A DNA stretch of 64,000 nucleotides from Gemmatimonadaceae bacterium (GCA_025930755.1 JAICOJ010000006.1:7109-71108), one strand, 5' to 3'. Counted from the stretch's first letter, positions 3,245 through 60,985 are shown. A program made the numbers and translations. The notes: generated by a model from the letters alone, not told the origin.

Positions 3245-3311
3245 AGGCCGAGGGTGCCGAGGTGATCGAGGAGTGGCAACGTTCCCTCGATCACCTCGAC
3301 GACCTCAGCCT
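3245..3311. repeat. Long imperfect hairpin (ATCGAGG-type family) between convergent genes; probable bidirectional terminator
   Basis: The inner stem is 14 perfect bp (3258-3271 pairs with 3285-3298, cgaggtgatcgagg/cctcgatcacctcg), and an outer imperfect stem extends to 3245/3311. The arms are made of repeated CGAGG units. The hairpin starts 1 nt after the TAA at 3242-3244 and covers the stop (3305-3307) of the minus-strand gene. Confidence 0.7.
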
Positions 3312-3949
3312 CTCCGTAACGGGACCGCTTCGGTCGTCTCCAGGCGTTTCGTCGCCACCCAGTCGCGGCCATCGCGGGCGAGCTCCTCGAGATCGGCGGG
3401 CAACGTGGCCCCAACCGGGGCGACGAGACGACCGTACTGCCGGAGGGCCCGGGCGGCCGCCCCCACGTGTGGCGAATGCCGCTCGTCGAGCGCGATCGCG
3501 CGTGCCGCACCCGGCCGAATCGGAATGGCGCCATCCGTGCGGGCCAGTGAAATGCCATTCCCACTGGTCAACGCCACCGTCGTGTTGAGAACGAGAATCT
3601 CGACCCCCTCCACGACGCCGAGCAGCGCGGGAGCGGCGTGCCCCCACTCGCCGGCCAGGACGATGAACCCGCCGGGGCTCGTTAGGTCGAACAGGGCGGC
3701 GACGCGCATCGCGAGTTCGGCGTCCCCGGTTGCCGACGCCAGCGGCGTGGAATCGGGAATCGGCGTCGTGCCATCCCGCGTCTGGAAATCGACCACGCCG
3801 TCGCGAATGGGATAGCGCGCGCTGCACGACGGGCATCCGAGGAGTCCGCGCCGAATGTCGCGGCCCGCCATCTCGAGCGTCGAGGCGACGAGCCAGGTGA
3901 ACTCGTGCGGCCGCGGACAGCGCAGCGACTCAACCAGCTCGATGAACAT
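3305..3949 (-). CDS. Hypothetical protein with an N-terminal Trm112-like zinc-ribbon segment
   Basis: The N-terminus LRCPRPHE...LGCPSCSARYPIRDGVVDF resembles the Trm112p-like CxxC...YPI.DGI fold. The C-terminal part is not recognised. Confidence 0.5.
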   Translation of the reverse strand: MFIELVESLRCPRPHEFTWLVASTLEMAGRDIRRGLLGCPSCSARYPIRDGVVDFQTRDGTTPIPDSTPLASATGDAELAMRVAALFDLTSPGGFIVLAGEWGHAAPALLGVVEGVEILVLNTTVALTSGNGISLARTDGAIPIRPGAARAIALDERHSPHVGAAARALRQYGRLVAPVGATLPADLEELARDGRDWVATKRLETTEAVPLRRG

Positions 3950-3988
3950 GACTCCTCGTGAGGCAGGCCAGGGTCGCGTTCGCCACGA

Positions 3989-4708
3989 TCACCGCAGGGG
4001 CGTCGAGCTGCCGTGCGCGAGCTGCAGGAATTCGTCGCGCGTGCGCGCATCCGAGCGAAACGAGCCACGCAGCGCGCTGGTGATCGTCTTCGAGTTCTGC
4101 TTCTCGACGCCGCGCATCATCATGCAGAGATGGTACGCCTCGATCACGACGCCGACGCCGCGCGGCGCGAGCACGTCCTGAATCGCCTGCGCGATCTGCT
4201 CGGTGAGCCGCTCCTGCACCTGGAGGCGGCGCGCGAACACTTCGACGATTCTCGGCAGCTTCGACAGGCCGACGATGTGGCCGTCGGGAATGTACGCGAT
4301 GTGCGCCTTTCCGAAAAAGGGGAGCAGGTGATGCTCGCACATCGAGTACAGCTCGATGTCGCGCACCATGACCATACTCTCGTGCGCTTCCGCGAAGACG
4401 GCGTCGCCGACGACCTCGTCCACCTCGAGCGCGTATCCTCGCGTGAGCCAGGCGAGCGCATTGGCCACGCGTGTCGGAGTACGGAGCAGGCCTTCCCGCG
4501 CCGGATCTTCCCCGATGAGCTCGAGGATGCGGCGCACGAGCGCCTCGAATTCCGCGTTGTGCTCCGGGCCGGGATCGAGATCCAGACCGGCATCGAACTC
4601 GGCGAGCTCGAGCGAGCGCGTGTCGACGCGCCGGTCGCCGGTCACCGCGGGAGTGGGCTTCGCGCGTCGCGCGGTCGCGCGCGCGCGCGAGTTTCGTCGG
4701 TGGGTCAC
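3989..4708 (-). CDS. folE: GTP cyclohydrolase I
   Basis: FolE signature sequences are present: [51 protein letters not shown] and HLCMMMRGV. The track ORF runs to 4813. I place the start at the GTG at 4708, but this is uncertain. Confidence 0.85.
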
Positions 4709-4853
4709 GAAAAGTTCGGCGTGGCGTGTGTTTCGCAAAGGCGTGGCGCTCGATGACGCACGCACGAGGCATCCAGCTTGAGTCGACGGCGGTGCGCCTC
4801 TAACTTGACGCACGTTTCACCGCCGGCATCACCCCTATCTGGATGGCGCACAT

Positions 4854-6083
4854 TTGAAAGTCAAGCTTCTGCTCGCGGCCATCCTGCAGGGCGGATCAGC
4901 CGCGTGGTCCGCGCTGTGGACCTTCCCGAGCATCCTGTTCAGCGCGTTCATGATCGCGTGGGGAGCAGAGGCGGCGCAGTTCATGATTTCGCAGGGGTTG
5001 GCGCTGGCGATTCTCGCATGGTTGCAGACCCTCCCCGAGTTCGCGGTCGAAGCGGTCATCGCATGGGAAGCCGGCAGCGACCCCCTGCAGTGTTTCGTCG
5101 CCGCTCCGCCACCGGGTTGTCATTCCCACCTCGCCATCGCGAACTACACCGGCGCCATCCGTCTGCTGATTGGCCTCGGCTGGCCGATGATCTATTTCGT
5201 CGCCGCGTTCTACCGTCGCAAACAGGGCCGCGCACTCCGCGCGATCCAGCTGGAGGACGAGCACTCGGTCGAAGTGCTCGCCACCGTTCCACCGGTGCTC
5301 TACTTCTTCTGGGTGTGGTACAAGGGCTCACTCGGGCTCGTCGACGCCGGGGTGCTGATCGCCATGTACGTCGGCTATCTCGCCATTCTCTGGCGCTTCC
5401 CACCCCAGGAGCAGGAGAACCTGTCCGATGCGCCGGCACCGGCGCGGTGGGCGTACACGCGCCCGGGGGCCTGGCGGCATGCGGCGATCATCGGCTTCTT
5501 CGCCGTGGGCGGCTTGCTGCTCTACTTCACCGCCCATCCCTTTCTGGACTCCATGCTCGCGCTGGCCCTCTCGATGGGCATCAGCCAGTTCGTGTTCGTG
5601 CAGTGGGTCGCACCATTTCTGAGCGAGTTTCCCGAGAAAGTCTCGGCGTTCGCGTGGGCGCGGCGGGTGACGCACGCGCCGATGGGGCTCATGAACATGC
5701 TGTCGAGCAACGTCAACCAGTGGACGGTGCTCGCGGCGATGATTCCGATCGTGTTCTCCTTTGCGCGGGGCGAGCCGGCCGCGCTGCCGTTCGATGGCGA
5801 GCAGCGGATGGAGATCCTGCTGACCATCATGCAGAGCGTCGTCGCCGTGCTCCTGTTGGCAAACATGCGCTTCGAGTGGTGGAACGCGACGCTGCTGTTC
5901 GTGCTCTGGCTCGTGCAGTTTTTGCGCGCGACGTGGCGGGAGGAGATTACGATTGTCTATGCCGCCTGGGCGGTAGGACTCTTGATCTGGTTCGTGATGC
6001 GACCGCCAGCCGCGCCGAGGGTCTTCTTCCAGATGATGCGACGCCCGCCGCCGACGAAGGCCGCGGAGCCCGCCGTACCATAA
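4854..6083 (+). CDS. Polytopic membrane protein, Na+/Ca2+ exchanger (CaCA)-like
   Basis: The protein has many hydrophobic helices. Two alpha-repeat-like motifs, LQTLPEFAVE and FLSEFPEKV, resemble the GxSxPE motifs of CaCA transporters. Confidence 0.55.
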   Translation: MKVKLLLAAILQGGSAAWSALWTFPSILFSAFMIAWGAEAAQFMISQGLALAILAWLQTLPEFAVEAVIAWEAGSDPLQCFVAAPPPGCHSHLAIANYTGAIRLLIGLGWPMIYFVAAFYRRKQGRALRAIQLEDEHSVEVLATVPPVLYFFWVWYKGSLGLVDAGVLIAMYVGYLAILWRFPPQEQENLSDAPAPARWAYTRPGAWRHAAIIGFFAVGGLLLYFTAHPFLDSMLALALSMGISQFVFVQWVAPFLSEFPEKVSAFAWARRVTHAPMGLMNMLSSNVNQWTVLAAMIPIVFSFARGEPAALPFDGEQRMEILLTIMQSVVAVLLLANMRFEWWNATLLFVLWLVQFLRATWREEITIVYAAWAVGLLIWFVMRPPAAPRVFFQMMRRPPPTKAAEPAVP

Positions 6084-6087
6084 CGCA

Positions 6088-6113
6088 CGAGCCCCGCCTT
6101 TCGGCGGGGCTCG
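6088..6113 (+). terminator. GC-rich stem-loop after the membrane-protein gene
   Basis: cgagccccgcc-tttc-ggcggggctcg forms an 11-bp perfect stem with a 4-nt loop, beginning 5 nt after the TAA at 6081-6083. There is no clear U tract. Confidence 0.5.
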
Positions 6114-6364
6114 CATAGTGGGGAACGAAGAGGATTTTTGAAGCCCATCCGAATGTATGAGGCCCTCACCACACTTCCGCCTTCCCCGCACTGGGGCATG
6201 ACGTCCGCATGGATATCGAACCCACCCGAGTGGACTTGTTGGCTCAAAAATTAGAGCTCTCCGTCCCTTTCGAAACCATCGACGCCGCACCACGCGTTGT
6301 CGCAACAGCACGGTACCGATAGTCACTTGCCAATCTAGAGACGACTCAGAGGCCAGTCAATCAC

Positions 6365-6541
6365 ATGGACGTCTGGATAATCGCCGCCATCGCGATGCTC
6401 GTCGTTTGGGGCGTCGGAACGTTCGCGTTCACGGGACCGGGCTGGATTCACCTGCTGCTCACGGTTGGACTGTCGGTGCTCATCTGGCGCATCGTCGTTC
6501 GCGGGACGCCTGACGAGTCGACGCGCCGCGATCGCCGGTGA
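6365..6541 (+). CDS. Small membrane protein, lmo0937/DUF5670-like (58 aa, below the track cutoff)
   Basis: My hand translation is MDVWIIAAIAMLVVWGVGTFAFTGPGWIHLLLTVGLSVLIWRIVVRGTPDESTRRDRR. It has two TM helices and the GxxIHLLL motif typical of that family. The stop TGA at 6539-6541 overlaps the GTG at 6538 of the next gene. Confidence 0.6.
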   Translation: MDVWIIAAIAMLVVWGVGTFAFTGPGWIHLLLTVGLSVLIWRIVVRGTPDESTRRDRR

Positions 6542-7554
6542 TCGAGCCCGCGGGCGCCGCCTCTCGGCCCGGCACCGCGGTCGCGGAGCAGCCGCAGCCC
6601 CAGCGGCGCCTGCACGGTCAATTCGTGCTCGTGACCGGCGCGGCGGGGTTCGTCGGAGCGCATGTCTGTCGGCACCTGACCGAACGCGGGGCGCGAGTGC
6701 GCGGCCTCGTCCGATCACCGGCGAAGGCAGCGGAACGACTCGCGCCGATGCCGGTGGAGCTTCACGTCGGCGATGTGCGCGATGCGATGGTGATGCAGCG
6801 CGCCCTGCAGGGATGCGATGCGGTCGTCCACCTCGCCGCCATCGCCATCGAGCGGCAGGGGCAAACGTACGAGGATGTCAACGCACGCGGCGCCGAGTGC
6901 GTGCTCGGCGCGATGCAGGCCACGGGCGTTCGACGACTCATCCACATGTCGCAGAACGGCGCGTCGAGCTCGTTGCCGTATCGCTTCCTCCGCAGCAAGG
7001 GACTCGCCGAGGACGCGGTGCGCGCGAGCGGAGCTGATTGGACGACCCTCCGCCCGTCGGTGATCTTCGGGCCCGACGATGAGTTCGTGAACGTGCTCGC
7101 CCGGCTCGTGCGTCTCTCGCCCCTGATCTATCCCCTGCCCGGAGGCGGCACTGCACGCTTCCAGCCGGTCGCGGTCGACGACGTTGCGCACGTCGTCGCC
7201 GCCGCGCTCGCGGAGAGCGACACCATTCGCCACGCCTACGCGCTCGGCGGTCCCGCGCAACTCACGCTTCGGCAGATGGTCGAACGCGTGCTCGTCGCGA
7301 TGGACGCCAAGCGTTTTCTGATTCCAGTGCCGATCGCCGTGCTCAGGCCGCTGATTGCTCTGGCGCAGCGCATTCTGCCGAACCCGCCAGTCACGACCGA
7401 GTTGCTCGATCTGCTCAAGGTCGACAATGTCGTGGAGGGCAATGCCCTCCGCGACGTGTTCGGGATCGTGCCCACGCCGTTCGCGCCCGAGGAACTGGTG
7501 TACCTCGAGGGAATCACTGCGCGGGCGGCGCTGCGGTCGCTTCTGGGCCGCTAG
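6538..7554 (+). CDS. NAD(P)-dependent epimerase/dehydratase-type (atypical SDR) protein
   Basis: The Rossmann motif VLVTGAAGFVGAHVCRHL is present. The overall layout resembles NmrA or complex-I NDUFA9-like SDRs. Confidence 0.8.
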   Translation: MIEPAGAASRPGTAVAEQPQPQRRLHGQFVLVTGAAGFVGAHVCRHLTERGARVRGLVRSPAKAAERLAPMPVELHVGDVRDAMVMQRALQGCDAVVHLAAIAIERQGQTYEDVNARGAECVLGAMQATGVRRLIHMSQNGASSSLPYRFLRSKGLAEDAVRASGADWTTLRPSVIFGPDDEFVNVLARLVRLSPLIYPLPGGGTARFQPVAVDDVAHVVAAALAESDTIRHAYALGGPAQLTLRQMVERVLVAMDAKRFLIPVPIAVLRPLIALAQRILPNPPVTTELLDLLKVDNVVEGNALRDVFGIVPTPFAPEELVYLEGITARAALRSLLGR

Positions 7555-7642
7555 GCGCGGTGCGAGATGTGCCGTGTGGAGACGGAGCGACGCGCGAACG
7601 ATCTGCGATGACGAGGTCGTGCGCTCGCAGCACGGACCACGG

Positions 7643-7990
7643 ATGGCCATGGTGGTTGCCAGCCAGGACGCGAATCTCGACCGGTTGTCGGCGCTCATCG
7701 ACGCGGCGGCCTCTCGCGCGGACGACCGCGTGGCCCTGTTCGATTTCGTCCTCGCGATCGGGGAGCTGTGGGACCGATTGGGGCTGCGCGACCCCTTCGT
7801 CGATGCGCAGCTGAGCGACTCGGACAGCCGCGCCCAGCTCGCGCGGGTCGCGCGCGACGGCGAAGGGGAGCCGGGTCCGGACGTGGAGCGGCTTGCGTTC
7901 TACGCGCTGCGCACACTCGCGGCGTTTCAGACCGTCGTCGAGGGGTGGCGCCGCAGCCCCTCGCTCCGGGCCGCCTGGGTCAGTCGTTAG
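7643..7990 (+). CDS. Hypothetical protein
   Basis: This is the ATG-initiated part of track ORF 7355..7990 with coding-like composition. I recognise no family, and the start is uncertain. Confidence 0.4.
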   Translation: MAMVVASQDANLDRLSALIDAAASRADDRVALFDFVLAIGELWDRLGLRDPFVDAQLSDSDSRAQLARVARDGEGEPGPDVERLAFYALRTLAAFQTVVEGWRRSPSLRAAWVSR

Positions 7991-8538
7991 GTCGCGGCAG
8001 GCGGCGCGTCTTCGTCATACCTCGGGCCGGCGCCGCTGTCCTCGAGCTGGTGCACGTCGGGAGGCTCGTGCGCCTGCCGCTCGCGAAGGGGCGCCGGCTC
8101 ATCGACGACGACCCGCACCTCGATCGCTCCCTCCACTGCGGACCGGGCGTTCGTGTCGTCCCGCAGGCGTTCGACACGCTCGCGGATCGCATCCGCCTGG
8201 TCGGCATCGCGACCCACGAGCAGCAGCCGGTACTGCCCACGCCCCGAGGAGGCGATCAGATCCGATTTCCGAAACTCGTGACACAATCCGAAAGTGAATC
8301 GCCGGCACGAGGCCTCTTCACCCCCCTGAACGAAGATCCGGATCGTCCGCACGCGACCCCCGTGGCGCGCCGCCCTGCGCTCTTCCCAATCGCGGACGAG
8401 ACGGAAGTACAGCACGCTCGGCAGCCCGGTGTTGGGATCCGTCAGCGTGCGCAGGAGCAGGCCGTTCTCGAGCTCGTTGTCGACGGTCATTGGCCTCGGG
8501 GTATCATCGTGCGGCAGCATTTGCATGATGCCTGCCAC
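7987..8538 (-). CDS. Degenerate GGDEF-like domain protein
   Basis: DPNTGLPSVLYF resembles the D.LTGL.NRR start of GGDEF domains. At the position of R.GGDEF the sequence reads SSGRGQYRLLL, so the active-site motif is lost. Confidence 0.45.
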   Translation of the reverse strand: MAGIMQMLPHDDTPRPMTVDNELENGLLLRTLTDPNTGLPSVLYFRLVRDWEERRAARHGGRVRTIRIFVQGGEEASCRRFTFGLCHEFRKSDLIASSGRGQYRLLLVGRDADQADAIRERVERLRDDTNARSAVEGAIEVRVVVDEPAPLRERQAHEPPDVHQLEDSGAGPRYDEDAPPAAT

Positions 8539-8561
8539 ATGGCCTCGCCCGTTAGGTCATC

Positions 8562-9023
8562 GTGTCCGAGGCGATCACTCGAAGAATTTCCGGCACCGGA
8601 ACCATTTGTGATGCGTGTCACACGCAGGCACTAACCCTGCAGAAGGGCCCTTGGCTGTACCCCGAGGAACGGGGTGTGGCGGCACAGGAGACCGCATGCT
8701 GGAGGAAGGCGTTGGCGTACCGTGAATTCGTCGATAACGCGGGAACGATGTGGAGAGTGTGGGACACCTATCCGGTGGCCGCGAATACGCTGCGCACCGT
8801 GTCTCCCAGCTTCGCTGGCGGGTGGCTCACGTTCGAGTCCGACACCGAGCGACGCCGTCTCGCGCCCATCCCCTCAGGCTGGGAGATCGCCACCAGGCAG
8901 CTGATGATCCATTGGTGCGCGCGGGCGTTTCAGGCTCGCCCTCCCGATCACCCTGCCACGGACGCGGCCCGCGGTCAGGGTCAGCTCGGGCCCGGCGCTA
9001 GATCTCCCAGTTCGACCAGATGA
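8562..9023 (+). CDS. Hypothetical protein
   Basis: Composition is coding-like. It has a conserved-looking core, MWRVWDTYP...GGWLTFESDTERRRLAPIPSGWE. The start is uncertain. The 3' end overlaps the convergent GNAT gene. Confidence 0.4.
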   Translation: MSEAITRRISGTGTICDACHTQALTLQKGPWLYPEERGVAAQETACWRKALAYREFVDNAGTMWRVWDTYPVAANTLRTVSPSFAGGWLTFESDTERRRLAPIPSGWEIATRQLMIHWCARAFQARPPDHPATDAARGQGQLGPGARSPSSTR

Positions 9024-9972
9024 CGCCGCGCTGCGGTGGACATTCGGGCGTGTCGGCGAGCGTCATGCGCAGATCCGTCCATCGCACGCGGGCGCCGAGA
9101 TCGATCAGCCGTTGATATGCGCCCAGGAATTCGGTTTGAACGCGAAGCGCAACGCGCCGCGTTCCGCTCCGACGCGCGTAGTCCATCAGCACGTCCGCTA
9201 GCCGCTTGAGATCGTCCTCGCGCTCGAGCGCGAGCTTCAACACGCGCATCTCCTCGCGAACGCGCCCCTCCACCAGCGGCGCGGTGTGGCACAGGGCGAA
9301 CCCAATCAGCCGTCCACGGTCGCGGAGCAGCACCGTGTCGCCGAGCGCCAGCTGATCGGTGAGGACGATCTCCCGAGTGAAGTCGAAGCCGGGGGCGAGG
9401 CCGTTGGTGAGCGCCCGACACTCCTCGATGGCATCGTCCTTGTCGCGTGGGGGGAGCCGCCCGAGAAGACTGGGACCAGTGCCGAGCGAACCCGCTTCGA
9501 GTGTGAGGGTGATCGTCAGGCGACCCGGGACGAAGCCGAGCGCGGAGTAGAAGCCAATGTTGTCCATCGTGCGGGGCATGGTCTCCAGCCCGATCGTGGC
9601 CGCGCGACCCGCGCGCAACCAGTCGACGCCGCCGCGGACGATCTCCTTCCCCAGCCCGACACCTTGCCAGTCGGGGCGGACGGCGAGCGGCCCCATCCAT
9701 CCCTCCACGCCGGAGCGGTGGGCAATGTTGAAGGCGACGATGTCGTCCCGGTCGTCTCGCCACACCAGCGCTCCCCCCCCGGCATCCTCGATCGCGTAAC
9801 GCCAGATCGCCGGATTGAGAAAGGGAACCCGGACGCCAACCATGCCGTCGCGACGATACCGCTCGCTGAATGCGTCGCTGAAGACCTGATTGAGGCCGCC
9901 GATGTCATCCAGGCCCGCGGGCTCGGGACCATCCGCCTGATGATGGGTTCGCCACGTGCGCGCCGTCGCCAT
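8998..9972 (-). CDS. GNAT-family N-acetyltransferase (two-lobed, 324 aa)
   Basis: An acetyl-CoA-binding-type segment is present: VRPDWQGVGLGKEIVRGGVDWL. A second GNAT-like half has LCHTAPLVEG... Its ATG (9972-9970) overlaps the sbcC stop (9974-9972) as ATGA. Confidence 0.75.
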   Translation of the reverse strand: MATARTWRTHHQADGPEPAGLDDIGGLNQVFSDAFSERYRRDGMVGVRVPFLNPAIWRYAIEDAGGGALVWRDDRDDIVAFNIAHRSGVEGWMGPLAVRPDWQGVGLGKEIVRGGVDWLRAGRAATIGLETMPRTMDNIGFYSALGFVPGRLTITLTLEAGSLGTGPSLLGRLPPRDKDDAIEECRALTNGLAPGFDFTREIVLTDQLALGDTVLLRDRGRLIGFALCHTAPLVEGRVREEMRVLKLALEREDDLKRLADVLMDYARRSGTRRVALRVQTEFLGAYQRLIDLGARVRWTDLRMTLADTPECPPQRGVIWSNWEI

Positions 9973-12443
9973 CAGTCGCCGGCCTCCGCCTCCTCGTACA
10001 CCTCATCCCCCACGACCGCTGGCGTAAACAGGTCCGGCAGCTCCGCGGTCTGCTGTTCCACGACCGAGCATCCGGTCTCCTCGTCGTACCGCACCGAGAT
10101 CACGCGATCCACCCCCTCGCGTACCTGCTCGATGTGCGTGATGAGAATGACCTGCTCGAAGCGGCCCTGGAGACGGCGCAGCAAGTCGAGCACGTTGGCG
10201 CGTCGTGCCTCGTCGAGTGAGCCAAAGATCTCGTCGAGGATGAGGAGCGAGAACGGCTGGCCGGCACGTTCGGCGATCATCTGAGAGATCGCGAGGCGCA
10301 GCACGAGGTTCGCCAGGTCCTCCTCGCCGCCGGAGATGACGGGCTTCGGCAGGCCGTCCTCGAGCACGACGATGTTGTAGCTGTCATCGAGCTCGAGCTC
10401 GCCGTAGCGCCCGTCGGTGAGGTCGCTCAGAAAGCCGCTGGCGAGCTCGGAGAGCTCGGGACGCAGCTGGAAGTTGAGATCGGTACGCAGATCGGTGAAC
10501 GCGCGGTCGAGCTCATCGTGAAGCACCTTCCGCTGGGTGAGCTCGCCGAGCATTCGCTGCCGCGAGGCCAGCTCGGCCGCCACCCCGTGCGCGCGCTCGA
10601 GCGCAGTGTGGGCACTGGCCTCCTCTCCCCGCGCCTGCACCAGTGCCAGCTCGGCCGCGTGCGCCTCGGCTGTCGCGCGCTCGTATTCGGTGCGCAGCGC
10701 TTCATGCTCCGATTCGCGGATCGTCGTCTCGTCGCGCCGGCCCTGCAGCACCGTGAGCCGTTGGCGAATCGACGCGAGCCGCTCCGCCGCGGCGGCACGC
10801 TCGCGCTCGACCTGCGGAACCCGCTCGAGCTGTGCACTGAGCCGCGCCGCGCGCGCATCGAGCGGCGTGAGACGCTCGAGCTCACCGCGGAGGAACTCGT
10901 GCCGCGCCGCATCGTACCCGGGGGGAATCGCCGTGAGCTCCGCGTTTACCTGGGCCGCGCGCTCGTCCTTGCCGGCCAGATCGGACTCGACGTGCGCGAG
11001 CTCCTGCACGGCGAGCTGCACCTTCGTCAGGCGACGCTCCAGCGTCGACACTTCCAGCGACATCGCGCGCCGCTGCTCGTCGAGGGCCTGCACATCCTCG
11101 GGCATCTCCATGAGCTGCTCGAAGCGCGCCTTGTAGTAGTTCCCATCGACGCGCACGGTCTCGATCTGCTCATCGAGAAGATCGAGGACCGCACGATAGG
11201 TGTCACCGAGCGGCCGGGCGCAGGTGGGGCACGCGCCCTCGGCGCCAAGGCTCACGATGCGGTCGCGCTGCTCCTTGAGCTCCGTGTACTGCTCGCGCAG
11301 CGATTGCCGCTTCGTCTCCGCCTCCTGCCGGTCGCGCACCCACTCGGTGCGCCTCGCCTCGAGGAGGCCGTCGGTCGCCTCGAAGTCGGCGCGCTTGGCG
11401 ACGAGCGCGGCATCGATCTCCGTTTCGAGCGTCGGTGCGTTCTCGAGCTTCGCGCGACGATCACGCAGACGGACGAGATCCTCCGCGAGCGCGGCTTGCG
11501 TCTCGAGGAGCGCGCGCCGCCGCCCCTCTTCCCGCGCGAGGACATCGAGACGCTGGAATTCCGATGCCAGCAGGGCGAACGGCTCGAGCTCGCGCCGCAG
11601 CTGGTCCAGCTCGGCACGCGCACTGGCGGCGTCGGCGAGATCGCGCTCCAGCCGCTGCACCTCGCGATGTTCGGCGGCCTCCTCCTGCTCCGCGACGCGC
11701 AGGTCGGCGAGCAAGGCCTGATGTGCCTCGCGAGCGCGCTGTGCTGCTTCCCATCGTGGCCGCACCTCGTCGAGCGCGGTTTGCGTCGCGTCGCGACGAC
11801 GCTGGGCGAAGCGGGCACGATCGCGAGCTTGTTCCAGCCGCGTTTCGGTCTCGGCCACCTGACGGGCCACGGCCTCGGGGTCGCCCATCCCCTGCTTCAG
11901 CCCCGCCATCTCGGCGACGATGGCGCGGCGCCGGTCGCGCGCGATTTCCTGCGCCGCACGCAGCCGCTCGTAGCCCAGCACGCGCGAGAGGAACTGTGCG
12001 CGCTCCGTCGGGCTCATCGCGGCCATCACGCTGATCTCTTTCTGGCCGGTGAAATACGTGTTGAAGAACTCCTCGCGCGTCATGCCGAGCCGGCGCGTGA
12101 GGACGTCCGTCACCCCGGTGATCGAGTCGGCGATCTTGTTTTGAGCGCCATCGAGGTAGAGCTCGGCGTTCGTCAGGCCGCGAACGACCCGGTAATTATG
12201 GCCGCCGAGATCGAAGTCGAGCTCGACGCGCACTCCCGAGCGCGCACCAGCGCGGTTGAAGCGAATGGAGTCGCGCGTGCCTCGAGCGGCGGGGTTTCCA
12301 TAGATCGCCCACGCGATCGCCTCGAGGATGGTCGTCTTTCCGGCGCCATTGGGCCCGATGATGCCCGTGACCCCCGGACCGAACTCCACCCGGCTGTCCG
12401 CGTGCTGGCGGAAGTTCTGGAGGACGACCCGGTTGAGCTGCAC
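9972..12443 (-). CDS. sbcC: SbcC/Rad50-family SMC-like ATPase
   Basis: It has Walker A GPNGAGKTTILEAI, long coiled coils, a zinc hook GACPTCARPL, a signature motif SGGEEDLANLVLRLAI and Walker B LLILDEIFGSLD. Confidence 0.9.
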   Translation of the reverse strand: MQLNRVVLQNFRQHADSRVEFGPGVTGIIGPNGAGKTTILEAIAWAIYGNPAARGTRDSIRFNRAGARSGVRVELDFDLGGHNYRVVRGLTNAELYLDGAQNKIADSITGVTDVLTRRLGMTREEFFNTYFTGQKEISVMAAMSPTERAQFLSRVLGYERLRAAQEIARDRRRAIVAEMAGLKQGMGDPEAVARQVAETETRLEQARDRARFAQRRRDATQTALDEVRPRWEAAQRAREAHQALLADLRVAEQEEAAEHREVQRLERDLADAASARAELDQLRRELEPFALLASEFQRLDVLAREEGRRRALLETQAALAEDLVRLRDRRAKLENAPTLETEIDAALVAKRADFEATDGLLEARRTEWVRDRQEAETKRQSLREQYTELKEQRDRIVSLGAEGACPTCARPLGDTYRAVLDLLDEQIETVRVDGNYYKARFEQLMEMPEDVQALDEQRRAMSLEVSTLERRLTKVQLAVQELAHVESDLAGKDERAAQVNAELTAIPPGYDAARHEFLRGELERLTPLDARAARLSAQLERVPQVERERAAAAERLASIRQRLTVLQGRRDETTIRESEHEALRTEYERATAEAHAAELALVQARGEEASAHTALERAHGVAAELASRQRMLGELTQRKVLHDELDRAFTDLRTDLNFQLRPELSELASGFLSDLTDGRYGELELDDSYNIVVLEDGLPKPVISGGEEDLANLVLRLAISQMIAERAGQPFSLLILDEIFGSLDEARRANVLDLLRRLQGRFEQVILITHIEQVREGVDRVISVRYDEETGCSVVEQQTAELPDLFTPAVVGDEVYEEAEAGD

Positions 12444-13643
12444 CTAGCCGCCGAGTGTGGGTGGAGACCCCGCGGACGCAACGCTCGCGGCCGCATCGGC
12501 TTCCTGCAAATAAAACGTCCCGAGCTGCACGAGCGCGTCACGATCGACACCCGGAGCGAGCGTGCGCTTGCCGATGTACGACTCGACCGTCTCGCGAAGC
12601 GTCGGACGACGGCCCGGTGCGCCGCTCGCGGCGAGACGCATCATCTCCGGACGCCGGGCGTCGAGGTGGAAGTGGAGCGCGCGCCGCTTGTAGTCGCGCA
12701 ATGCTTTCTGGTCCAGTTCCCGCGCGACGTGTCGTGGGATGTCCCGCACGACGAGGCGCACGATCTTCTCGTCGATCCCGTCCTCGCACTTCTCGACCGC
12801 ATCGCGAATGGCGCTGTCGAGCTCGGAGGCCGTGAGCCCGCGCGCAGGAACCGCGGGCAGGTCGACGAGCCGGCGCGACGGGTCGAGCGGGTGGAAGGTA
12901 TGGACGCCCCGCTCGAGGTCGAACTCGATAAAGCCCTTCCCGGGCAGTCCTCCCACTTTTTCCTCGATCAGCTCGCCCCAGGGATTCGTGCTCGTGTAGT
13001 CGACGGAGCCGGAGTAGTACATGTTCGGCGCGATCTGCCGGTGCACGTGGTAGTGCCCCAGCGCCACGTAGCTCCACCGCGGAGCGCCGATCGCGTCGAG
13101 CGGGATTTCCATCGCCGCACGGTCCGCCCGCACGGCCTCCGCCGGCAGCATGCCCTGCACTTCCCCGTGCAGCAGCAGCACGTTGTGCCTAACGCCCGGC
13201 TCCGGGAGCAGCGCGGGATAATCACCGAGGCAGTCGGGAACGGCGAGGATGGCCAGGTCGCGCTCGGGAAACGTCAGGCGACGAGGCTCCGAATCGACGA
13301 CGTGAACCCCCAGCACGGTGAACAAGCGCAGGATGCAGCCCGTCTCGGTCGCCCGCGGACGGTCATGGTTCCCCGCCACCATGACGACGATCGCCTGCGG
13401 CACCGCCCGGGTCAGTCGAGCCAGCTGGTTGAACGCGTGGATGATCGCCGGGTTCATCGGGCGAACGGTGTGGAAAATATCCCCCGCGAACACGACGACG
13501 TCGGGCTCGAGGGCGATGATCCGGTCGATCGCGCTCCGAAAGGCGTTCGCGACGTCCGCTTCGCGCTGATTGATTCCGGATTGCGTCAGGCGGTGGTACT
13601 GACGGAAACCGAGATGCAGGTCGGAGATGTGAACCAGGCGCAC
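12444..13643 (-). CDS. sbcD: SbcD/Mre11-family nuclease
   Basis: The calcineurin-like phosphoesterase motifs are present: ISDLHLG, FAGDIFH, AGNHD, LLLHGEV and ALGHYH. A GAGGA sequence lies 5 nt upstream of the GTG start. The stop directly abuts the sbcC start. Confidence 0.9.
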   Translation of the reverse strand: MRLVHISDLHLGFRQYHRLTQSGINQREADVANAFRSAIDRIIALEPDVVVFAGDIFHTVRPMNPAIIHAFNQLARLTRAVPQAIVVMVAGNHDRPRATETGCILRLFTVLGVHVVDSEPRRLTFPERDLAILAVPDCLGDYPALLPEPGVRHNVLLLHGEVQGMLPAEAVRADRAAMEIPLDAIGAPRWSYVALGHYHVHRQIAPNMYYSGSVDYTSTNPWGELIEEKVGGLPGKGFIEFDLERGVHTFHPLDPSRRLVDLPAVPARGLTASELDSAIRDAVEKCEDGIDEKIVRLVVRDIPRHVARELDQKALRDYKRRALHFHLDARRPEMMRLAASGAPGRRPTLRETVESYIGKRTLAPGVDRDALVQLGTFYLQEADAAASVASAGSPPTLGG

Positions 13644-13701
13644 GCCGTCCTCGGGGAAAATTCGGCTAACTGTAATACTCCTAAGAGGATAGCGTGTGCG
13701 C

Positions 13702-14547
13702 TCACCGCTTGTCCATAGTGCGTTGCCGCTGCAGCAGGCGCATCTGCATCTTCACCGGCTGGAGGCCGCTTCCGGGGGGCTGGGCGATGTGCGAGCGCAT
13801 GGACATTTCGGTCGAGGCGTCAGTAACCCACCCCCGGCCGCGGTCGAGAACCATGTAACCGGTGACCGTCCCACTCATCGTCATGCGCGCCCCACCGCGA
13901 ATCGGGGCTGCCGTCGAATCCCGTGTGACGGTGCCGCGCATCGAGATGTGGGCAAGCTTCCCGCGGCGCGTGAGCGAGTCGAGCCGGAAGGTGGCCTCGA
14001 GCGTTCCGGCAACCTGGCCCGGGCCTGTGTCGGGAATGGGGATGCGCTGCTTCCACGTGCTGCCGATCGCAACCGCCTGGCGTGGGAACGTGGCCGGGAG
14101 CTGCGAGAAGACCGATTGAAGGTCGCGCGGGATGTCCGGGTCCGCCTCGATCACGATTCCCGAGCCCTCGCGCGAGAAGCGGACGCGAACCTCCTTCCCC
14201 TGCAGCGATCGGCGCGCCTGATCACTGAGCGTCGCGACGCGCGGGTCGATCGCACCCATGTCCACCGCTACCGAATCGGTAATCGATCGCACCGTCGTGC
14301 CCTCGTTGTCCGACTCGATCACGATGGACCGGGACAGCATGAGCATGGACGAGCGCATGGTGATCGTCGTGTCGGCATCGCGAACCTTGCCGACGCCCGA
14401 GATCTCCATTTCCTGCTCGATGCGGAGCCGCAGCGTGTCGCCGACCTTGGGCTTGATCTGCAGCAGCACGCTCTGCGCGTGCGCGCCCGGAGCGATCGAG
14501 GCGACGAGCGCGACCAAGGCGGTGACGCGCCTCACGAGGGTGAGCAT
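13702..14547 (-). CDS. Hypothetical exported protein
   Basis: The N-terminal signal peptide is MLTLVRRVTALVALVASIAPGAHA-QS. Composition is beta-rich and GC3 is good. The start lies 3 nt after the herA stop. Confidence 0.6.
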   Translation of the reverse strand: MLTLVRRVTALVALVASIAPGAHAQSVLLQIKPKVGDTLRLRIEQEMEISGVGKVRDADTTITMRSSMLMLSRSIVIESDNEGTTVRSITDSVAVDMGAIDPRVATLSDQARRSLQGKEVRVRFSREGSGIVIEADPDIPRDLQSVFSQLPATFPRQAVAIGSTWKQRIPIPDTGPGQVAGTLEATFRLDSLTRRGKLAHISMRGTVTRDSTAAPIRGGARMTMSGTVTGYMVLDRGRGWVTDASTEMSMRSHIAQPPGSGLQPVKMQMRLLQRQRTMDKR

Positions 14548-14550
14548 GCG

Positions 14551-16515: not shown

Positions 16516-16531
16516 TCAACTCTCTGTGCTC

Positions 16532-16632
16532 AACGGCAAAGAGGACAGAATCCAGAACATAGCATAGAGAATACAGAAGTGTCGTTGCTGAATTCTGCAT
16601 TCCGTATTCTGAATTCTGTCCTCTTTGCCGTT
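16532..16632. repeat. Long palindromic element (CAGAAT-type family, copy A) between nurA and herA
   Basis: The outer clamp aacggcaaagaggacagaat pairs with attctgtcctctttgccgtt (20 perfect bp), followed by imperfect arms of cagaat-like units. It starts 3 nt after the nurA stop (16635-16637) and ends 17 nt before the herA start (16515). Confidence 0.8.
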
Positions 16633-16634
16633 TC

Positions 16635-17633
16635 TCAGGAAATGGCACGCAGGAACTCTTCACACTCCCGCACGGGATACGCCATACGGTCCCACCGGGA
16701 ATCCGGGAGCGCCAGTGGTGCGCGCTCGGCGAGCACCCACCGCGAGACTTCATCCGCGCGCGCCGAGGCATCCTCGGTCTCCGCGACCTCGACACGCACG
16801 ATCCCCCAGAGCGCGTCGTGCGCCACGCCATCGCGCAGGCGCAGGTACCAGGAGTGCACGGGCGTCCGATTGCGCGGGGCGATCCGTACCACGGGCGTAC
16901 GCTCGCCGCACGCCAACCCGAGAATCACGTCCAGGAGCGCCGCCGACGCGTAGAGCTGACGGTGGGATTTCACGATTCCTACCGCGCAGCTGTGCGTCCC
17001 GACGATTTCGCTGGCCGAGATGCTGCCGTCTACCAGCAGTGGCTCACGCATCGTCTCGCACCACTGCTCGGCCAGGGTGCGCTCGGCGCGCTCGCGGTCG
17101 CGCTGCACGGCGTGCAGCGCTTGCTCCGTCACGTGGGCAGGATGCCGGGAGAGGACTCCGTCGTCGTCCGCCCGTGACGTGTCGACGAGGTCAAGGCCGC
17201 CGAGGCTGTGGCGTGTTTCCGCGTCGAGCGCCGAGAGGGGCGCATAGATACGACACTCGACGATCGGATGCTGCCATGTCGTGAGGCGCCGATCCACTCG
17301 GCGCTTGACGACGGCGGAGACGCGGCCCCAGACAATGGGAATTCCTCGCGAGAGCGTTACCACTCGGCTCTCCTGGATGCCATCGAGAAAGGCACTGAAC
17401 GCGGGCGCCGGCGACCCCGGTACAGGGCGCGCCACCGTTGCATTCTCAACGCGTTGCGCGTCTATGACCCGGGGTGCCTCATGAACACCCTCGAGCCGCT
17501 CGAGCGTGGGTGCCGTGCTGGTGACGGTGGCGACGCCGGGCACGCGATGCGCGAGGATGCGCACCGCGTCGTGGAAAGTTGCCACGGGTATGGAGGGGGG
17601 GTAGGTTGCCCGCTGCCTCTGCTCCACTGCCAC
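16635..17633 (-). CDS. nurA: NurA-like nuclease
   Basis: An LLVDGSI motif followed by IVKSHRQLY is typical of NurA, and the gene is adjacent to herA. The track ORF runs to 17912 but would overlap the divergent lipoprotein gene. I chose the GTG at 17633, and the start remains uncertain. Confidence 0.6.
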   Translation of the reverse strand: MAVEQRQRATYPPSIPVATFHDAVRILAHRVPGVATVTSTAPTLERLEGVHEAPRVIDAQRVENATVARPVPGSPAPAFSAFLDGIQESRVVTLSRGIPIVWGRVSAVVKRRVDRRLTTWQHPIVECRIYAPLSALDAETRHSLGGLDLVDTSRADDDGVLSRHPAHVTEQALHAVQRDRERAERTLAEQWCETMREPLLVDGSISASEIVGTHSCAVGIVKSHRQLYASAALLDVILGLACGERTPVVRIAPRNRTPVHSWYLRLRDGVAHDALWGIVRVEVAETEDASARADEVSRWVLAERAPLALPDSRWDRMAYPVRECEEFLRAIS

Positions 17634-17670
17634 CGTCTCAGGTCCCGCCGATCGGCCGCCTTCGGCAGCC

Positions 17671-18678: not shown

Positions 18679-18694
18679 GCGAACGGCGTTTCCG

Positions 18695-18814
18695 AACGGC
18701 AAGGATGACAGAACTCGGAATACAGAATTTCAGATAAGTCTACGGGGAGCCAGGGTCGTGGCTCCCCGTGGTCGTTTCTGAATTCTGCATTCTGTATTCT
18801 GAATTGTCGCCGTT
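18695..18814. repeat. Long palindromic element (CAGAAT-type, copy B) between convergent genes
   Basis: Arms aacggcaaggatgacagaactcggaatacagaatttcaga and tctgaattctgcattctgtattctgaattgtcgccgtt flank a nested GC hairpin at 18742-18769 (acggggagcc-agggtcgt-ggctccccgt). The right end overlaps the TAA at 18813-18815 of the methyltransferase gene. Confidence 0.8.
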
Positions 18815-19448: not shown

Positions 19449-19457
19449 GGCCCCGCC

Positions 19458-49964: not shown

Positions 49965-50025
49965 GGAACACTGAAAGAGGAACGAGAAGGCACACGCGCT
50001 TCCTCGTTCCTTCTTCCTCGTTCCT
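49965..50025. repeat. Hairpin (GAGGAACGAGG-type, copy E) between pdhB and the E2 gene
   Basis: It starts right after the TGA at 49962-49964. ggaacgag (49979-49986) pairs with ctcgttcc (50003-50010). The right arm carries cttcctcgttcc twice in tandem. Confidence 0.65.
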
Positions 50026-51428: not shown

Positions 51429-51519
51429 GAACGAGGACGAGGAACGAGGAAGCGGTATGCACGCTCCCGTGCGCTGGCCGAAAGCGCCGCTTCCTCGTTC
51501 CTGGTTCCTCGTTCTTTTT
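51429..51519 (+). terminator. Long hairpin (GAGGAACGAGG-type, copy F) plus T-run after the E2 gene
   Basis: gaacgaggacgaggaacgaggaagcgg (51429-51455) pairs with ccgcttcctcgttcctggttcctcgttc (51487-51514) with one bulge. It is followed by ttttt (51515-51519) and starts 2 nt after the TGA. Confidence 0.7.
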
Positions 51520-52960: not shown

Positions 52961-53054
52961 AACGGCAAAGATGATGGAATGCAGAGTACAGAATTCAGAA
53001 TGCAGAGGCGTCGTTGCTGAATTCTGTATTCTGCACTCTGTCATCTTTGCCGTT
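52961..53054. repeat. Long palindromic element (CAGAAT-type, copy D) between lpdA and lipB
   Basis: A near-perfect stem of about 38 bp runs from 52961-52998 to 53017-53054, with clamp aacggcaaagatga/tcatctttgccgtt. The arms are cagaat-type 7-mers. It lies 8 nt after the lpdA stop, and the lipB AAGGAG follows at 53059. Confidence 0.85.
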
Positions 53055-54306: not shown

Positions 54307-54332
54307 CGCGGCAGAACGTTCCGATGCGGGAC

Positions 54333-54366
54333 GAAGCGCGGAGCCTCCGTCACGATTCCGCGCTTC
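54333..54366 (+). terminator. Possible stem-loop after the cupredoxin gene
   Basis: gaagcgcgg pairs with ccgcgcttc (9 bp, 16-nt loop). There is no U tract. Confidence 0.3.
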
Positions 54367-58530: not shown

Positions 58531-60827
58531 CGAACGATGAAGACTTTGCGCCGTACGAGTCCCGACGGCAGCTCGGCCACGAGAACGTACACGCCGTTGA
58601 CGACGGCGCCGCCGCCTTCGGCCTGGAGATTCCAGCGCAGGGTGGTCGCGTCATCGAAGTCCGTCTCACGGAACGAGCGGACGCGCTTGCCGGCGAAGTC
58701 GTACAGATCGACGCGTCGTGGGGCTTCGCCGAAGCGAATCACGACTGGAGACGAGCGGATGGGATTCTGCGAGATGTTGAACGATTCGCCTTGCGCGAGC
58801 ATGAGGGCCCGTACGTTCGCGACCGCGCCTGCCACATTCAGCTTGCCAAACCCCCACGACGCGTTGGGCGATGTGTTGGGCTCGCCCGTGAAGGTTCGGG
58901 CCGTGAACCCGTCACGCCGCGCACCGCGCTGGAGTGCATCGACCGCCTGCTCCGGTGTGAGGTGGTGGTACACCGAGAGCATCAAGGCGACTGCCCCGGT
59001 GACGTGCGGTGCCGACATGCTCGTCCCCGCCTCGAGCACGTGAGCACTGTCGGGACTCACGAACCGCTCATCTCCGCCGAAGAAGGCATCGCCCGACATG
59101 GCCGAGAGCGCGACGCCTGGCGCGACGATCTCAGGCTTCAGACGACCATCGCGCGTGGGACCTGGTGAGCTGAAGAACAGCAGGTCGTTGGCCGGCCAGA
59201 GGCTGAGTGGCGCCAGCGACCAATCCTCACCATCGAAGCCCCGCCACGACGCGAAGCCATGGTACCCCCCAACGGCGATCACCCGCTCCCCATCCGCGGG
59301 TGACTGAATGAGTCGTCGGTTCGTTCCGCCCGTCGTGAAAAACGGCTCGGTGCTGATGAAGGCGAACGGAATGTAGGAGTCGACGAGACCGCTCCCTGCA
59401 CCGGCGGTCTTGCGGAAGATCAGGCGCCATGTGCCCGCGTCCGGCGCGGTGCCGCCATCGAGCCATTCGCCGATGAACGCCGTGAAATAGTTGGTGGTCG
59501 ACGTCGAGAAGCCTGACGACGACTCGAAGTCGTCGATGATGGTGTCGCCCCGTGCCGTTCCGTTGTAGGCGAGCACCCCACCCGCGGCACCAAACGATGC
59601 CGCGGCGTCGTTGAAGCCAAGATCGAGGCGCGATCCGTCCGGGCGCACGAGCGTGACGGCGAACGTGTCCTGTGGCGAATAGAACGCCTGAACCACGAGC
59701 AGGTCATCATCGCCTGCGGGTCCGCGCGTGTAGTTAGGCAGCGCGAGATCGATCACCCCCGAGTCGCCCAGCGCCACGGTGGTTTCACCGTGGAGCGAGC
59801 CGAGAAGCGCGAAGTTCGACCCGTCATTGCCTGCCGCCGCGACGACAATGCGGCCGGGCCCCGACAGCTCATCCATGACGACCGAGAGCACCTGCTTGCC
59901 GTCGTGCGGCCCCGCCTGCGTGCCGAGGCTGAGATTGACGACCGCCGGCTTTCCGAGCTGCTCGGCCCTCGCGAAGATGTAGGCGACTCCATCGGCCACC
60001 GACGCCGTGGATAGGCTGGTGCGGACGACGATGAGGTCGGCCTCGGGCGCGACGCCGACGTACTCGTATCGCGGCTCGCCGCGGTTCGCGCCGGAGCCAT
60101 CGCCGGCGGCGATTCCGGCCACGTGCGTCCCGTGCCCGTCCCGGTCACGCGATGGGCAGGTGCCGTTCCTCCCAAGCTGCGCCTGTCGACACTCGATGCC
60201 GTAGGAGAACGTCATGCCCGACACCGTTCCTGGCGGCACTCCCGTGGCTCCGGGCCCGGGAGCATGATCCCAGAGATACAGGATACGGGACCGACCCGTC
60301 ACATCATCGATGAAATCGCCATGGCGGAAATCGATTCCCGAATCCACGATGCCGACGATCGTCCCCTGTCCCGTCGCTCCCGAAAACTCATCGCGATCGA
60401 CCCGGCGGCGGATCTGCGACGCACCGATTTCGGTCATCGTCGACGTGCTGTAGCTCAGTCGCTGCGCGAACTCGACGCCCCGCACACCCGGGAGCGAGCG
60501 GAGGTCACGCAGCCGCTCCATGGGAACGCGGGCGGTGACCCATTCGCCGGCGCGGATGCCGACGCGCGCACCAACAGCCGTCAGCGCGTCTTCGACACCG
60601 GCGGCACCGCGCACGAATACGTCAACGGCGATGGCACCGGACTCATCCCGGGACAGCGCGATTCTCGCCGCGCGCGGCGAGAATCCGAGCTCGCGCGCGC
60701 GGGCGATTTCGTTGAGCGCGTCGCGCGCCCGGGCGTGCGACGGCCGCTTGGCGGGCCGCTCGATGAGCCCCTGTGCCGCAAGCGCCGGCGCGCAGAGGAG
60801 GCCAACGAACAATGTTCGGAGATGCAT
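58527..60827 (-). CDS. S8 (subtilisin-family) serine peptidase with a T9SS-type C-terminal sorting domain
   Basis: There is a signal peptide. The catalytic triad regions are VGIVDSGID, HGTHVAGIAAG and GTSMSAPHVTGA. The last ~85 aa (QNPIRSSPVVIRF...VDLYDFAGKRV...NGVYVLVAE...RKVFIVR) match the type-A T9SS CTD pattern. Confidence 0.85.
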   Translation of the reverse strand: MHLRTLFVGLLCAPALAAQGLIERPAKRPSHARARDALNEIARARELGFSPRAARIALSRDESGAIAVDVFVRGAAGVEDALTAVGARVGIRAGEWVTARVPMERLRDLRSLPGVRGVEFAQRLSYSTSTMTEIGASQIRRRVDRDEFSGATGQGTIVGIVDSGIDFRHGDFIDDVTGRSRILYLWDHAPGPGATGVPPGTVSGMTFSYGIECRQAQLGRNGTCPSRDRDGHGTHVAGIAAGDGSGANRGEPRYEYVGVAPEADLIVVRTSLSTASVADGVAYIFARAEQLGKPAVVNLSLGTQAGPHDGKQVLSVVMDELSGPGRIVVAAAGNDGSNFALLGSLHGETTVALGDSGVIDLALPNYTRGPAGDDDLLVVQAFYSPQDTFAVTLVRPDGSRLDLGFNDAAASFGAAGGVLAYNGTARGDTIIDDFESSSGFSTSTTNYFTAFIGEWLDGGTAPDAGTWRLIFRKTAGAGSGLVDSYIPFAFISTEPFFTTGGTNRRLIQSPADGERVIAVGGYHGFASWRGFDGEDWSLAPLSLWPANDLLFFSSPGPTRDGRLKPEIVAPGVALSAMSGDAFFGGDERFVSPDSAHVLEAGTSMSAPHVTGAVALMLSVYHHLTPEQAVDALQRGARRDGFTARTFTGEPNTSPNASWGFGKLNVAGAVANVRALMLAQGESFNISQNPIRSSPVVIRFGEAPRRVDLYDFAGKRVRSFRETDFDDATTLRWNLQAEGGGAVVNGVYVLVAELPSGLVRRKVFIVR

Positions 60828-60915
60828 TCGGTGCGTCCGAGGGGGGACGAGGTGGGCGGCGACATCGCCGGCGCAGCAACATAGCGGTGGGACCGCGGGA
60901 GGGCGAGGTTGCCGA

Positions 60916-60985
60916 GGTGTCGAGGGATCGAGGGTAATCGAGGCGGTCGGCGCCGTTCCTCGATTACCGCGACACTCCCGACACC
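60916..60985. repeat. Hairpin (ATCGAGG-type, copy H) after the 562-aa lipoprotein gene
   Basis: The inner stem gggtaatcgagg/cctcgattaccc is 12 bp (60932-60943 pairs with 60958-60969). The outer stem ggtgtcg/cgacacc is 7 bp. The left arm is made of tcgagg units. It lies 8 nt downstream of the TAA at 60993-60995. Confidence 0.65.

Follow-up and report, generated by a model that had tools for sequence, protein, structure and literature searches.

Stop-adjacent palindromes with heptanucleotide-repeat arms in a Gemmatimonadaceae genome and its relatives

A stretch of 64,000 nucleotides from a Gemmatimonadaceae bacterium (GCA_025930755.1, JAICOJ010000006.1:7109-71108; hereafter the window, with positions counted from its first letter) carries nine long hairpins next to stop codons, and comparison with related sequences identifies these as local examples of a population of palindromes that pervades Gemmatimonadota genomes and turns over fast. 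We favour, with moderate confidence, a reading of the nine as extragenic palindromes whose arms are mirror-image heptanucleotide microsatellites, which would originate by replication slippage and inverted copying and would behave on transcripts like repetitive extragenic palindromic (REP) elements and as partial terminators. They appear not to be classical terminators, and the design as a whole has one earlier report, for a single motif in Xanthomonas (PMC4692102).

Nine stop-adjacent hairpins and their classes

All nine hairpins listed in an initial annotation of the window are present, beginning at 3245, 16532, 18695, 24598, 25193, 49965, 51429, 52961 and 60916. Folded as RNA on the sense strand, they have minimum free energies of -29.5 to -65.8 kcal/mol and z-scores of -4.6 to -12.6 relative to 200 dinucleotide-preserving shuffles, and for none of the nine does any shuffle (0/200) fold as well. 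Their stems comprise 22-46 pairs and their loops extend up to about 46 nt; in a gapless stem scan of the whole window, seven of the ten hairpins scoring at least 14 come from this set. The ordinary GC-rich stems previously noted at 6088, 40442 and 45265 exist as well, and the separation of the heptamer hairpins from such stems as a distinct class is supported. Searches of Rfam returned no match to the nine hairpins at the gathering threshold, and only chance microRNA-precursor matches at E<=1.

That the arms are tandem units rather than random sequence is borne out. The unit size of 6-7 nt originally proposed holds for seven hairpins, in which Tandem Repeats Finder (TRF) reports period 7 (arrays at 16588, 18776, 24604, 25193/25232, 49999, 51429/51491 and 52977), but not for those at 3245 and 60916, which are built from irregular units of 8-10 nt. 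The same two depart from the A+T-richness ascribed to the set, as this is clear for seven (GC 0.43-0.60 versus 0.65-0.67 in the flanks) but marginal at 3245 (0.64 versus 0.70) and at 60916 (0.66 versus 0.69). Similarly, a CGTT directly before the right arm is indeed found in six hairpins, but these amount to only two independent observations, four being copies of one family and two of another. The adjacency to stop codons is confirmed, with gaps, in order along the window, of 0, 2, overlap, 1, overlap, 0, 1, 7 and 7 nt; the 18695 hairpin overlaps one stop and on its other side lies 16 nt from a stop. As described before, three of the nine lie between convergent and six between co-directional genes, all flanking genes being ordinary housekeeping genes.

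Four of the hairpins, to which, as to the other five, we assign no strand, belong to a class (A, 'cagaat') whose plan starts with a left terminus AACGGCAAAGATGA and two to five CAGAATN units; next comes, in some copies, a GC-rich inner stem-loop, one strand of which carries a T tract, and last a mirror half ending in TCATCTTTGCCGTT. The A1 element at 16532-16632 (z -11.5), with termini AACGGCAAAGA...TCTTTGCCGTT, CAGAATN heptamer arms and a short loop, is found 2 nt past the stop of the minus-strand gene 16635-17912 and 16 nt ahead of the start of the minus-strand gene 14551-16515, and it differs from its ortholog in locus L015, a 94%-identical relative, by two compensatory double changes in the stem. 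A second, intra-operonic A1 element at 52961-53054 (dG -61.1, z -12.6) lies 7 nt past the E3 stop and 21 nt ahead of the LipB start. The A2 element at 18695-18814 (dG -65.8, z -9.1), between convergent genes, has a central GC-rich inner hairpin, and its right end overlaps the TAA of a minus-strand O-methyltransferase gene; the inner 13-bp GC-rich stem-loop (18740-18771, plus strand), followed by TCGTTTCTGA and identified by a consensus terminator scan and by the inner hairpin and T tract of other copies, is the only strong terminator-like site in positions 1-20000 by that scan. The remaining A2 element, at 24598-24734 (dG -54.9 for 24596-24736) and 1 nt past the CoaE stop, is decayed: relative to the intact 130-nt ortholog in L012 its right arm is partly replaced, and this comparison, together with refolding, places its true end near 24734, so that the end first given, 24707, represents one alternative pairing. 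A promoter-like TTGACT-17-TAGACT (plus strand, 24747-24775; a consensus match only) between this fourth hairpin and the GcvH start at 24805 suggests that the hairpin may separate two transcription units.

Of classes B and D the window holds two copies each, which are clearly homologous, and of class C one. Both class B hairpins are found in the 2-oxoacid dehydrogenase (PDH) operon, which runs E1-alpha, E1-beta, hairpin, E2, hairpin, E3, hairpin, LipB: an intra-operonic hairpin of GAGGAAC heptamers at 49965-50025 (z -5.6), 0 nt past the E1-beta stop and 22-23 nt ahead of the E2 start, and one of GAACGAG/GAGGAAC heptamers at 51429-51519 (dG -60.1, z -9.6), which ends in TTTTT, 1 nt past the E2 stop and about 30 nt ahead of the E3 start. 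The class C hairpin at 25193-25260 (z -4.6), with (GGGGAGT)n / (CTTCACT)n arms, is the second in the order CoaE, hairpin, GcvH, hairpin, GcvP, and overlaps the stops of the convergent GcvH (25192-25194) and GcvP (25255-25257) genes; compared with its L012 ortholog, T/C changes swap G.U and G-C pairs. Class D ('tcgagg', irregular units) is represented between convergent genes at 3245-3311 (dG -42.2, z -5.9), 0 nt past the TAA of a plus-strand gene and overlapping the stop of the minus-strand gene 3305-3949, and upstream of a minus-strand S8 peptidase gene at 60916-60985 (z -5.1), 7 nt past the stop (60993-60995) of the minus-strand gene 60993-62681, the two sharing GGTRATCGAGG...CGTTCC(C)TCGATYACC. 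In 3258-3303 the class D arms read GAGGTGATC / GATCACCTC, which we take to be the Shine-Dalgarno consensus and the 16S rRNA 3' end and which may be just purine richness; GGAG or GAGG is contained in many other 5' arms.

Related hairpins across Gemmatimonadota and their turnover

To place the nine in context, we compared a Gemmatimonad set of three syntenic contigs plus 80 metagenome loci for which the E3 gene served as anchor (844 kb scanned, 809 kb after de-duplication) with a control set of 764 kb of loci from other organisms. Long hairpins number 147 versus 69 in the control, tandem-armed hairpins 43 versus 8, and those with period 7 among them 35 versus 5; likewise, the de-duplicated Gemmatimonad set holds 287 TRF tandem arrays versus 82, with period 7 in 144 versus 19. 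The four arm motifs singled out by the initial annotation are not special, as the relatives use more than 20 other heptamers, including GATTGCG, GAGTACT, GGGCAGA, GGGGTAC, GGTTGCT, GACGGCA, AGGAAGG, GAACGGT and GACCGAA, as well as GGGACTC, GGGAGGA, GGAGTCG, GCGGAAT, GGGAGCC, GGGAGAA, CATCAGC and GGGGACG. A few heptamer-armed hairpins occur in control loci too (L013 6399-6471, L019 6466-6593, L054 7269-7321, L114 2995-3098, L119 6305-6396), whose hosts are Heliomicrobium, Chitinophagaceae, Prolixibacteraceae, Peribacteria (Candidate Phyla Radiation) and Acidobacteriota, with Firmicutes and Bacteroidota among the phyla; the design is therefore enriched in Gemmatimonadota and not exclusive to them.

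Many of the relatives' units are rich in G tracts (GGGGACG, GGGAGGA, GGGCAGA), and GGGAATC arrays were shown to form G-quadruplexes in vitro by Rehm et al. (PMC4692102), so that the repeats might be quadruplex-forming, as has been proposed for heptamers of Xanthomonas and Nostoc. We regard this as very improbable. Four tracts of at least three G in the 5' arm are found in none of the nine window hairpins and in five of 41 in relatives, class A (CAGAAT) and class B (GAGGAAC) units cannot form a quadruplex, and duplex formation with the complementary arm would compete; for the window, the G-tract counts largely refute the proposal.

Two tendencies mark the 41 tandem-armed hairpins of the de-duplicated set, on which the counts of arm bias and stop distance are based. 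First, of 38 tandem-armed hairpins 36 have a purine-rich 5' arm, and in 39 of 41 that arm has more G than C; paired arrays are purine-first in a ratio of 61:7. Since either strand of a palindrome gives the same reading, this bias is a real handedness. Second, the proposed tie to gene 3' ends extends to the relatives, where 29 of the 41 have a foot within -45 to +25 nt of a called stop, compared with a mean of 2.5 and a maximum of 10 under random placement. As every sequence examined comes from metagenome-assembled genomes (MAGs) or metagenome contigs, fold-back chimeras arising in assembly or amplification could in principle mimic such structures, an explanation we find barely credible: independent assemblies have the same hairpins at orthologous sites, where they differ by substitutions and in unit number, the flanking genes are intact, and some hairpins keep a reading frame open.

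Some hairpins form dispersed families. A scan of one genome per species with a class A 17-mer, whose matches are mostly chance outside Gemmatimonadaceae, includes at least 16 Gemmatimonadaceae loci among the 119 loci listed, two of them, from MAG SMAG_U8639, matching the window at 93-94% identity across 3.4 and 8 kb. In total, at least 16 class A copies are found in the window (four copies) and at least seven Gemmatimonadaceae assemblies; they measure 52-138 nt with variable unit number, and a stop codon is never more than 20 nt away from any of the 16, even where 72-129 nt of spacer is free beyond. Relative to transcription they point both ways (6:3). Pairing in the outer 26-bp stem reaches 96.9%, with 7 of the 26 pairs changed on both sides, and the stem's covariation score is reached by none of 500 shuffles. 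The class A plan recurs in a family in locus L157, whose two copies (1033-1178 and 3529-3647), 2.4 kb apart, have conserved termini around TTGGTCR heptamer arms. Both families have terminal inverted repeats of the kind expected of MITEs (miniature inverted-repeat transposable elements), namely AACGGCAAAGATGA...TCATCTTTGCCGTT in class A and GCGRGTAATCRGT...ACCGATTACYCGC in the L157 family, and no consistent direct repeat was found as a target-site duplication around 12 class A copies or the two L157-family copies, which weakens a classical MITE reading. An integron attC origin was also considered and rejected, as AAC/GTT is outermost in class A, the flanks misfit RYYY/RRRY (RYYYAAC, GTTRRRY), and the genes on either side have housekeeping roles. 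In the window, GTCGTT is on the plus strand in all four class A copies (16581, 18771, 24677 and 53010), whatever the gene direction, which could be chance (1 in 8 for four copies) or could reflect the direction of replication.

Turnover is evident at single sites. In L120, a close relative whose E3 is 94% identical to that of the window, the E1-beta/E2 site holds an unrelated (GATTGCG)3 hairpin in place of the GAGGAAC hairpin of the window, and in L121 it holds none. At the E2/E3 site L120 keeps the GAGGAAC unit with a different loop, and at the E3/LipB site it has a class A copy of 52 nt with about two units per arm, versus five in the window; both hairpins are missing from L121 and L122. In relatives at 91% and 82% identity the PDH operon is free of hairpins, with gaps of just 14-34 nt, and the operon's spacers are too diverged to align between filled and empty sites. 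In the 83 loci anchored on E3 (82 loci matching E3, and the window), the sites on either side of E3 are either empty or carry heptamers, of which at least eight kinds occur. Elsewhere, the site following the gene for a 562-residue protein (60916 in the window) has a hairpin 7-9 nt from the stop in the window, L120 and L121, and the three sequences are unrelated, that of L120 having period 9 and that of L121 being non-tandem, which hints that a hairpin is wanted there. About 950 nt downstream of E3 in L170-L202, purine-rich heptamer arrays occupy one orthologous site (for example L187 8337-8368, L179 3076-3105, L174 6034-6062) with drifting units (AGGGAGC, GGGAGCG, GGGAGAA, GGGAAGG, CGGGAAA, AACGGGA), in what looks like concerted evolution within an array.

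The hairpins of relatives are not confined to spacers. In four of them, heptamer-armed hairpins lie in frame within the gene for E2, the dihydrolipoamide acyltransferase (L159 2110-2260, L160 4890-5018, L200 4849-4941, L197 663-749), where they supply some of the coding sequence for the flexible linkers that join the lipoyl, E3-binding and catalytic domains; the reading frames are open, with all domains in one frame. In a more distant clade, the linkers on either side of the E3-binding domain often consist of heptamer arrays that complement each other, such as GGGAGCG and CCGCTCC, and are 200-290 nt apart, as at L193 4905/5112, L190 4956/5213, L198 5097/5288 and L201 4973/5261, and this complementarity places the segment for the E3-binding domain in the 'loop' of a giant inverted repeat.

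These patterns could also be produced by purely selfish or neutral DNA, either mobile MITE-, REPIN- (REP doublets forming hairpins) or foldback-like palindromes or by-products of microsatellites, surviving only where insertion is harmless. The dispersed families with conserved terminal inverted repeats, the paralogous copies 1.4 kb and 57 kb apart in the window, presence and absence that differ among close relatives, in-frame copies in E2 linkers, and a lack of strand-specific wobble bias (see below) all fit such DNA. We nonetheless hold it to be unlikely as the whole explanation, as target-site duplications are missing from both families, most units are seen only once, class A adjoins the stop codon although free spacer follows, three unrelated sequences all provide a hairpin at one site, and stem pairing is kept by double changes.

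Two further features of the window stand apart from the hairpins described above. A repeat of five GGGGTGATC units at 23106-23151 (period 9, 94% matches), an in-frame three-residue repeat in the minus-strand open reading frame 20387-24010, is not a member of the hairpin class. A conventional GC-rich stem-loop, GAAGCGCGGAGCC...GGCTCCGCGCTTC, follows the gene for a copper-binding protein in the window (54332-54366), L120 (12728-12781) and L121 (12685-12720), and its sequence, unlike those of the heptamer hairpins, is conserved across relatives.

Proposed origin and possible effects on transcripts

The initial annotation likened the hairpins to terminators or REPs, and of these two proposals the REP-like one appears reasonable whereas the terminator one is not supported as stated. 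In only 6 of 34 stop-adjacent cases does the 8-nt tail after the stem contain at least four T, with a mean of 1.9 T compared with a background of 1.3, and within the window only the 51429 hairpin carries TTTTT. Four of the nine (16532, 49965, 51429 and 52961) are followed after 16-30 nt by the next start codon, and the operons concerned have no hairpin in relatives; these four must therefore be read through. The stems are also far from the short GC-rich form of a canonical terminator (about 5-15 bp with a 3-8-nt loop), with 22-46 pairs, and the GC content of the hairpins is 0.43-0.66; only the inner hairpin of class A2 has the canonical shape. By consensus scan, canonical terminator-like sites are no commoner in the window than in shuffles.

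This last result can also be turned around, as the hairpins might themselves be the main terminators of the lineage, in the form of long-stem, factor-independent, bidirectional terminators poor in U tracts. Their position directly after stop codons, with three of nine between convergent genes, the inner GC stem and one-stranded T tract of class A2, the TTTTT that ends the 51429 hairpin, the promoter-like site downstream of the 24598 hairpin, and the hairpin kept at one stop-adjacent site in three relatives despite unrelated sequences would all suit this role, just as the shuffle-level frequency of canonical sites would. The tail composition, the four hairpins ahead of a start in operons that are hairpin-free in relatives, the mixed orientation of class A relative to transcription, and the translation of related hairpins within E2 argue in the opposite direction, and we judge this role unlikely.

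We favour instead a model where the hairpins are extragenic palindromes with microsatellite arms that would arise in two steps. Replication slippage, which favours 7-nt units in prokaryotes, would expand a short array, and inverted copying or template switching within the palindrome would keep the arms complementary; together these steps would account for the symmetric growth and shrinkage of arms, for mirrored variant units and for compensated stem substitutions. Class A, and probably classes B and D, would additionally have been dispersed to many sites, forming families whose termini are conserved and leaving no target duplication. The hairpins persist just downstream of stop codons and, in relatives, also in flexible protein linkers, presumably as places where a hairpin does no harm. 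On the transcript, they would form very stable, REP-like 3' hairpins that may block 3' exonucleases and stabilise the upstream cistron, and RNA polymerase may be slowed or partly stopped, most plausibly at convergent pairs and where there is an inner GC stem with a T tract or a T run. As they start 0-8 nt past the stop, they may also interfere with terminating ribosomes.

Several points weigh against this model. Slippage and template switching leave unexplained both the different heptamer at the same site in a close relative and the purine-rich arm being always 5', and presence and absence among close relatives, as well as the in-frame E2 copies, fit neutral or selfish DNA equally. Every functional step is one that we infer from sequence. 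In the tandem hairpins, G.U versus A.C mismatches on the transcribed strand (28:19, p=0.24, a count possibly biased by a first detection pass that scored G.T on the plus strand only) show no sense-strand bias and so give no direct indication of selection acting at the RNA rather than the DNA level. Furthermore, the control set was picked by 17-mer match and is not a balanced bacterial sample, and the statistics on stop position rest on gene calls from a simple caller based on GC content at third codon positions (GC3).

A different account would invoke a lineage-wide process that continually makes, copies and reshapes mini-foldbacks from heptamer microsatellites, possibly driven by a hairpin-specific enzyme of the HUH or REP-associated tyrosine transposase (RAYT) kind or by a property of the polymerase; the cell would have co-opted the mini-foldbacks as its main U-tract-independent 3'-end signals, for termination and mRNA stabilisation, and as material for flexible protein linkers. 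We consider this distinctly unlikely.

If the hairpins do act on transcripts, they would constitute the dominant 3'-end signal in a soil phylum that has been little studied and seems poor in classical terminators, and would provide a natural series, from two to six units per arm, that relates stem length to termination, read-through and mRNA stability. Their rapid turnover is a tractable case of the birth and growth of palindromes from microsatellites, and the E2-linker copies are one where the dynamics of non-coding repeats feed directly into protein sequence. In practical terms, terminator prediction, gene calling and short-read assembly for Gemmatimonadota will be led astray by such hairpins.

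Comparison with known systems

Intrinsic terminators, including U-tract-poor 'I-shaped' and Mycobacterium TRIT-type ones, are stable stem-loops after stop codons that can serve convergent genes. The hairpins described here differ from them in their 22-46 pairs, compared with 5-15, in loops that are often long, in the usual lack of a U tract and in the many intra-operonic positions. Eukaryotic foldback transposons such as Drosophila FB are built from long inverted arms of short tandem repeats, with variable arm length and a small or absent centre; these are kilobase-scale, eukaryotic and transposase-linked elements, and nothing of that kind is shown for the hairpins here.

The closest functional analogues appear to be the REP, bacterial interspersed mosaic element (BIME) and REPIN sequences of Proteobacteria, which are likewise intergenic, near gene 3' ends, able to form stable hairpins and present as multi-copy families. 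REPs are found inside operons, as are some of the hairpins here, and there stabilise upstream mRNA; Liang, Rudd and Deutscher reportedly observed in 2015 that translation of the upstream gene is affected when a REP lies no more than about 15 nt from a stop codon. In contrast to the fixed 20-40-nt palindrome of a REP, the arms here are tandem microsatellites, and many units are single-copy. REPINs consist of two inverted units forming a long hairpin (PMC3116915). The GTAG/CGTC tag by which REPs are defined (PMC3733652) is absent from the feet of the window hairpins, which read AACGGC, GGAACA, GAACGA, GAGTGG, AGGCCG and GGTGTC.

With regard to the repeat unit, Mrazek et al. 2007 (cited in both PMC4692102 and PMC4679880) found heptamers to be the most over-represented long simple sequence repeats (SSRs) in prokaryotes and proposed that the stretch of DNA which the polymerase holds may be 7 nt long, which would favour slippage. 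Prokaryotic heptanucleotide SSRs (Mrazek, Guo & Shah 2007; the short tandemly repeated repetitive (STRR) sequences of cyanobacteria; TAACTGA, PMC4679880) share with our hairpins the preference for 7 nt, an intergenic location and a proposed origin by slippage, but are mostly direct arrays, whereas those here are mostly mirror pairs forming hairpins after stops. TAACTGA arrays are located upstream of start codons (MacGregor 2015, PMC4679880), in contrast to a position past stop codons.

Our literature searches for Gemmatimonas hairpins or repeats found no report. The initial annotation's statement that no such elements had been described does not stand in general, as Rehm et al. 2015 (PMC4692102) described inverted GGGAATC heptamer pairs near Xanthomonas stops. 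In each Xanthomonas genome, 70-75 GGGAATC arrays are arranged as convergent inverted pairs capable of folding into stem-loops, mostly no more than 50 bp past a stop codon or in overlap with it, and the G-rich array, on the coding strand, comes first. The pairs are transcribed, differ between close species and are seldom found between divergent genes, and G-quadruplexes were the structure that the authors favoured (PMC4692102). The hairpins described here resemble these pairs in their convergent tandem heptamer arms (seven of nine in the window; period 7 in 35 of 43 in relatives), in having the purine- or G-rich array first (36/38) near a stop (29/41), and in a unit number and sequence that vary among close relatives while the site is kept. 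They differ in that Xanthomonas has essentially one unit, compared with more than 20 unrelated ones here, most of them not quadruplex-capable, a capable arm (GGGNATC, at least four G tracts) being found in 0/9 hairpins of the window and 5/41 of relatives. Finally, one type here forms a family whose non-repeat termini are conserved and which has a GC hairpin inside, and copies are also found in frame in protein linkers, in a different lineage, the Gemmatimonadota.

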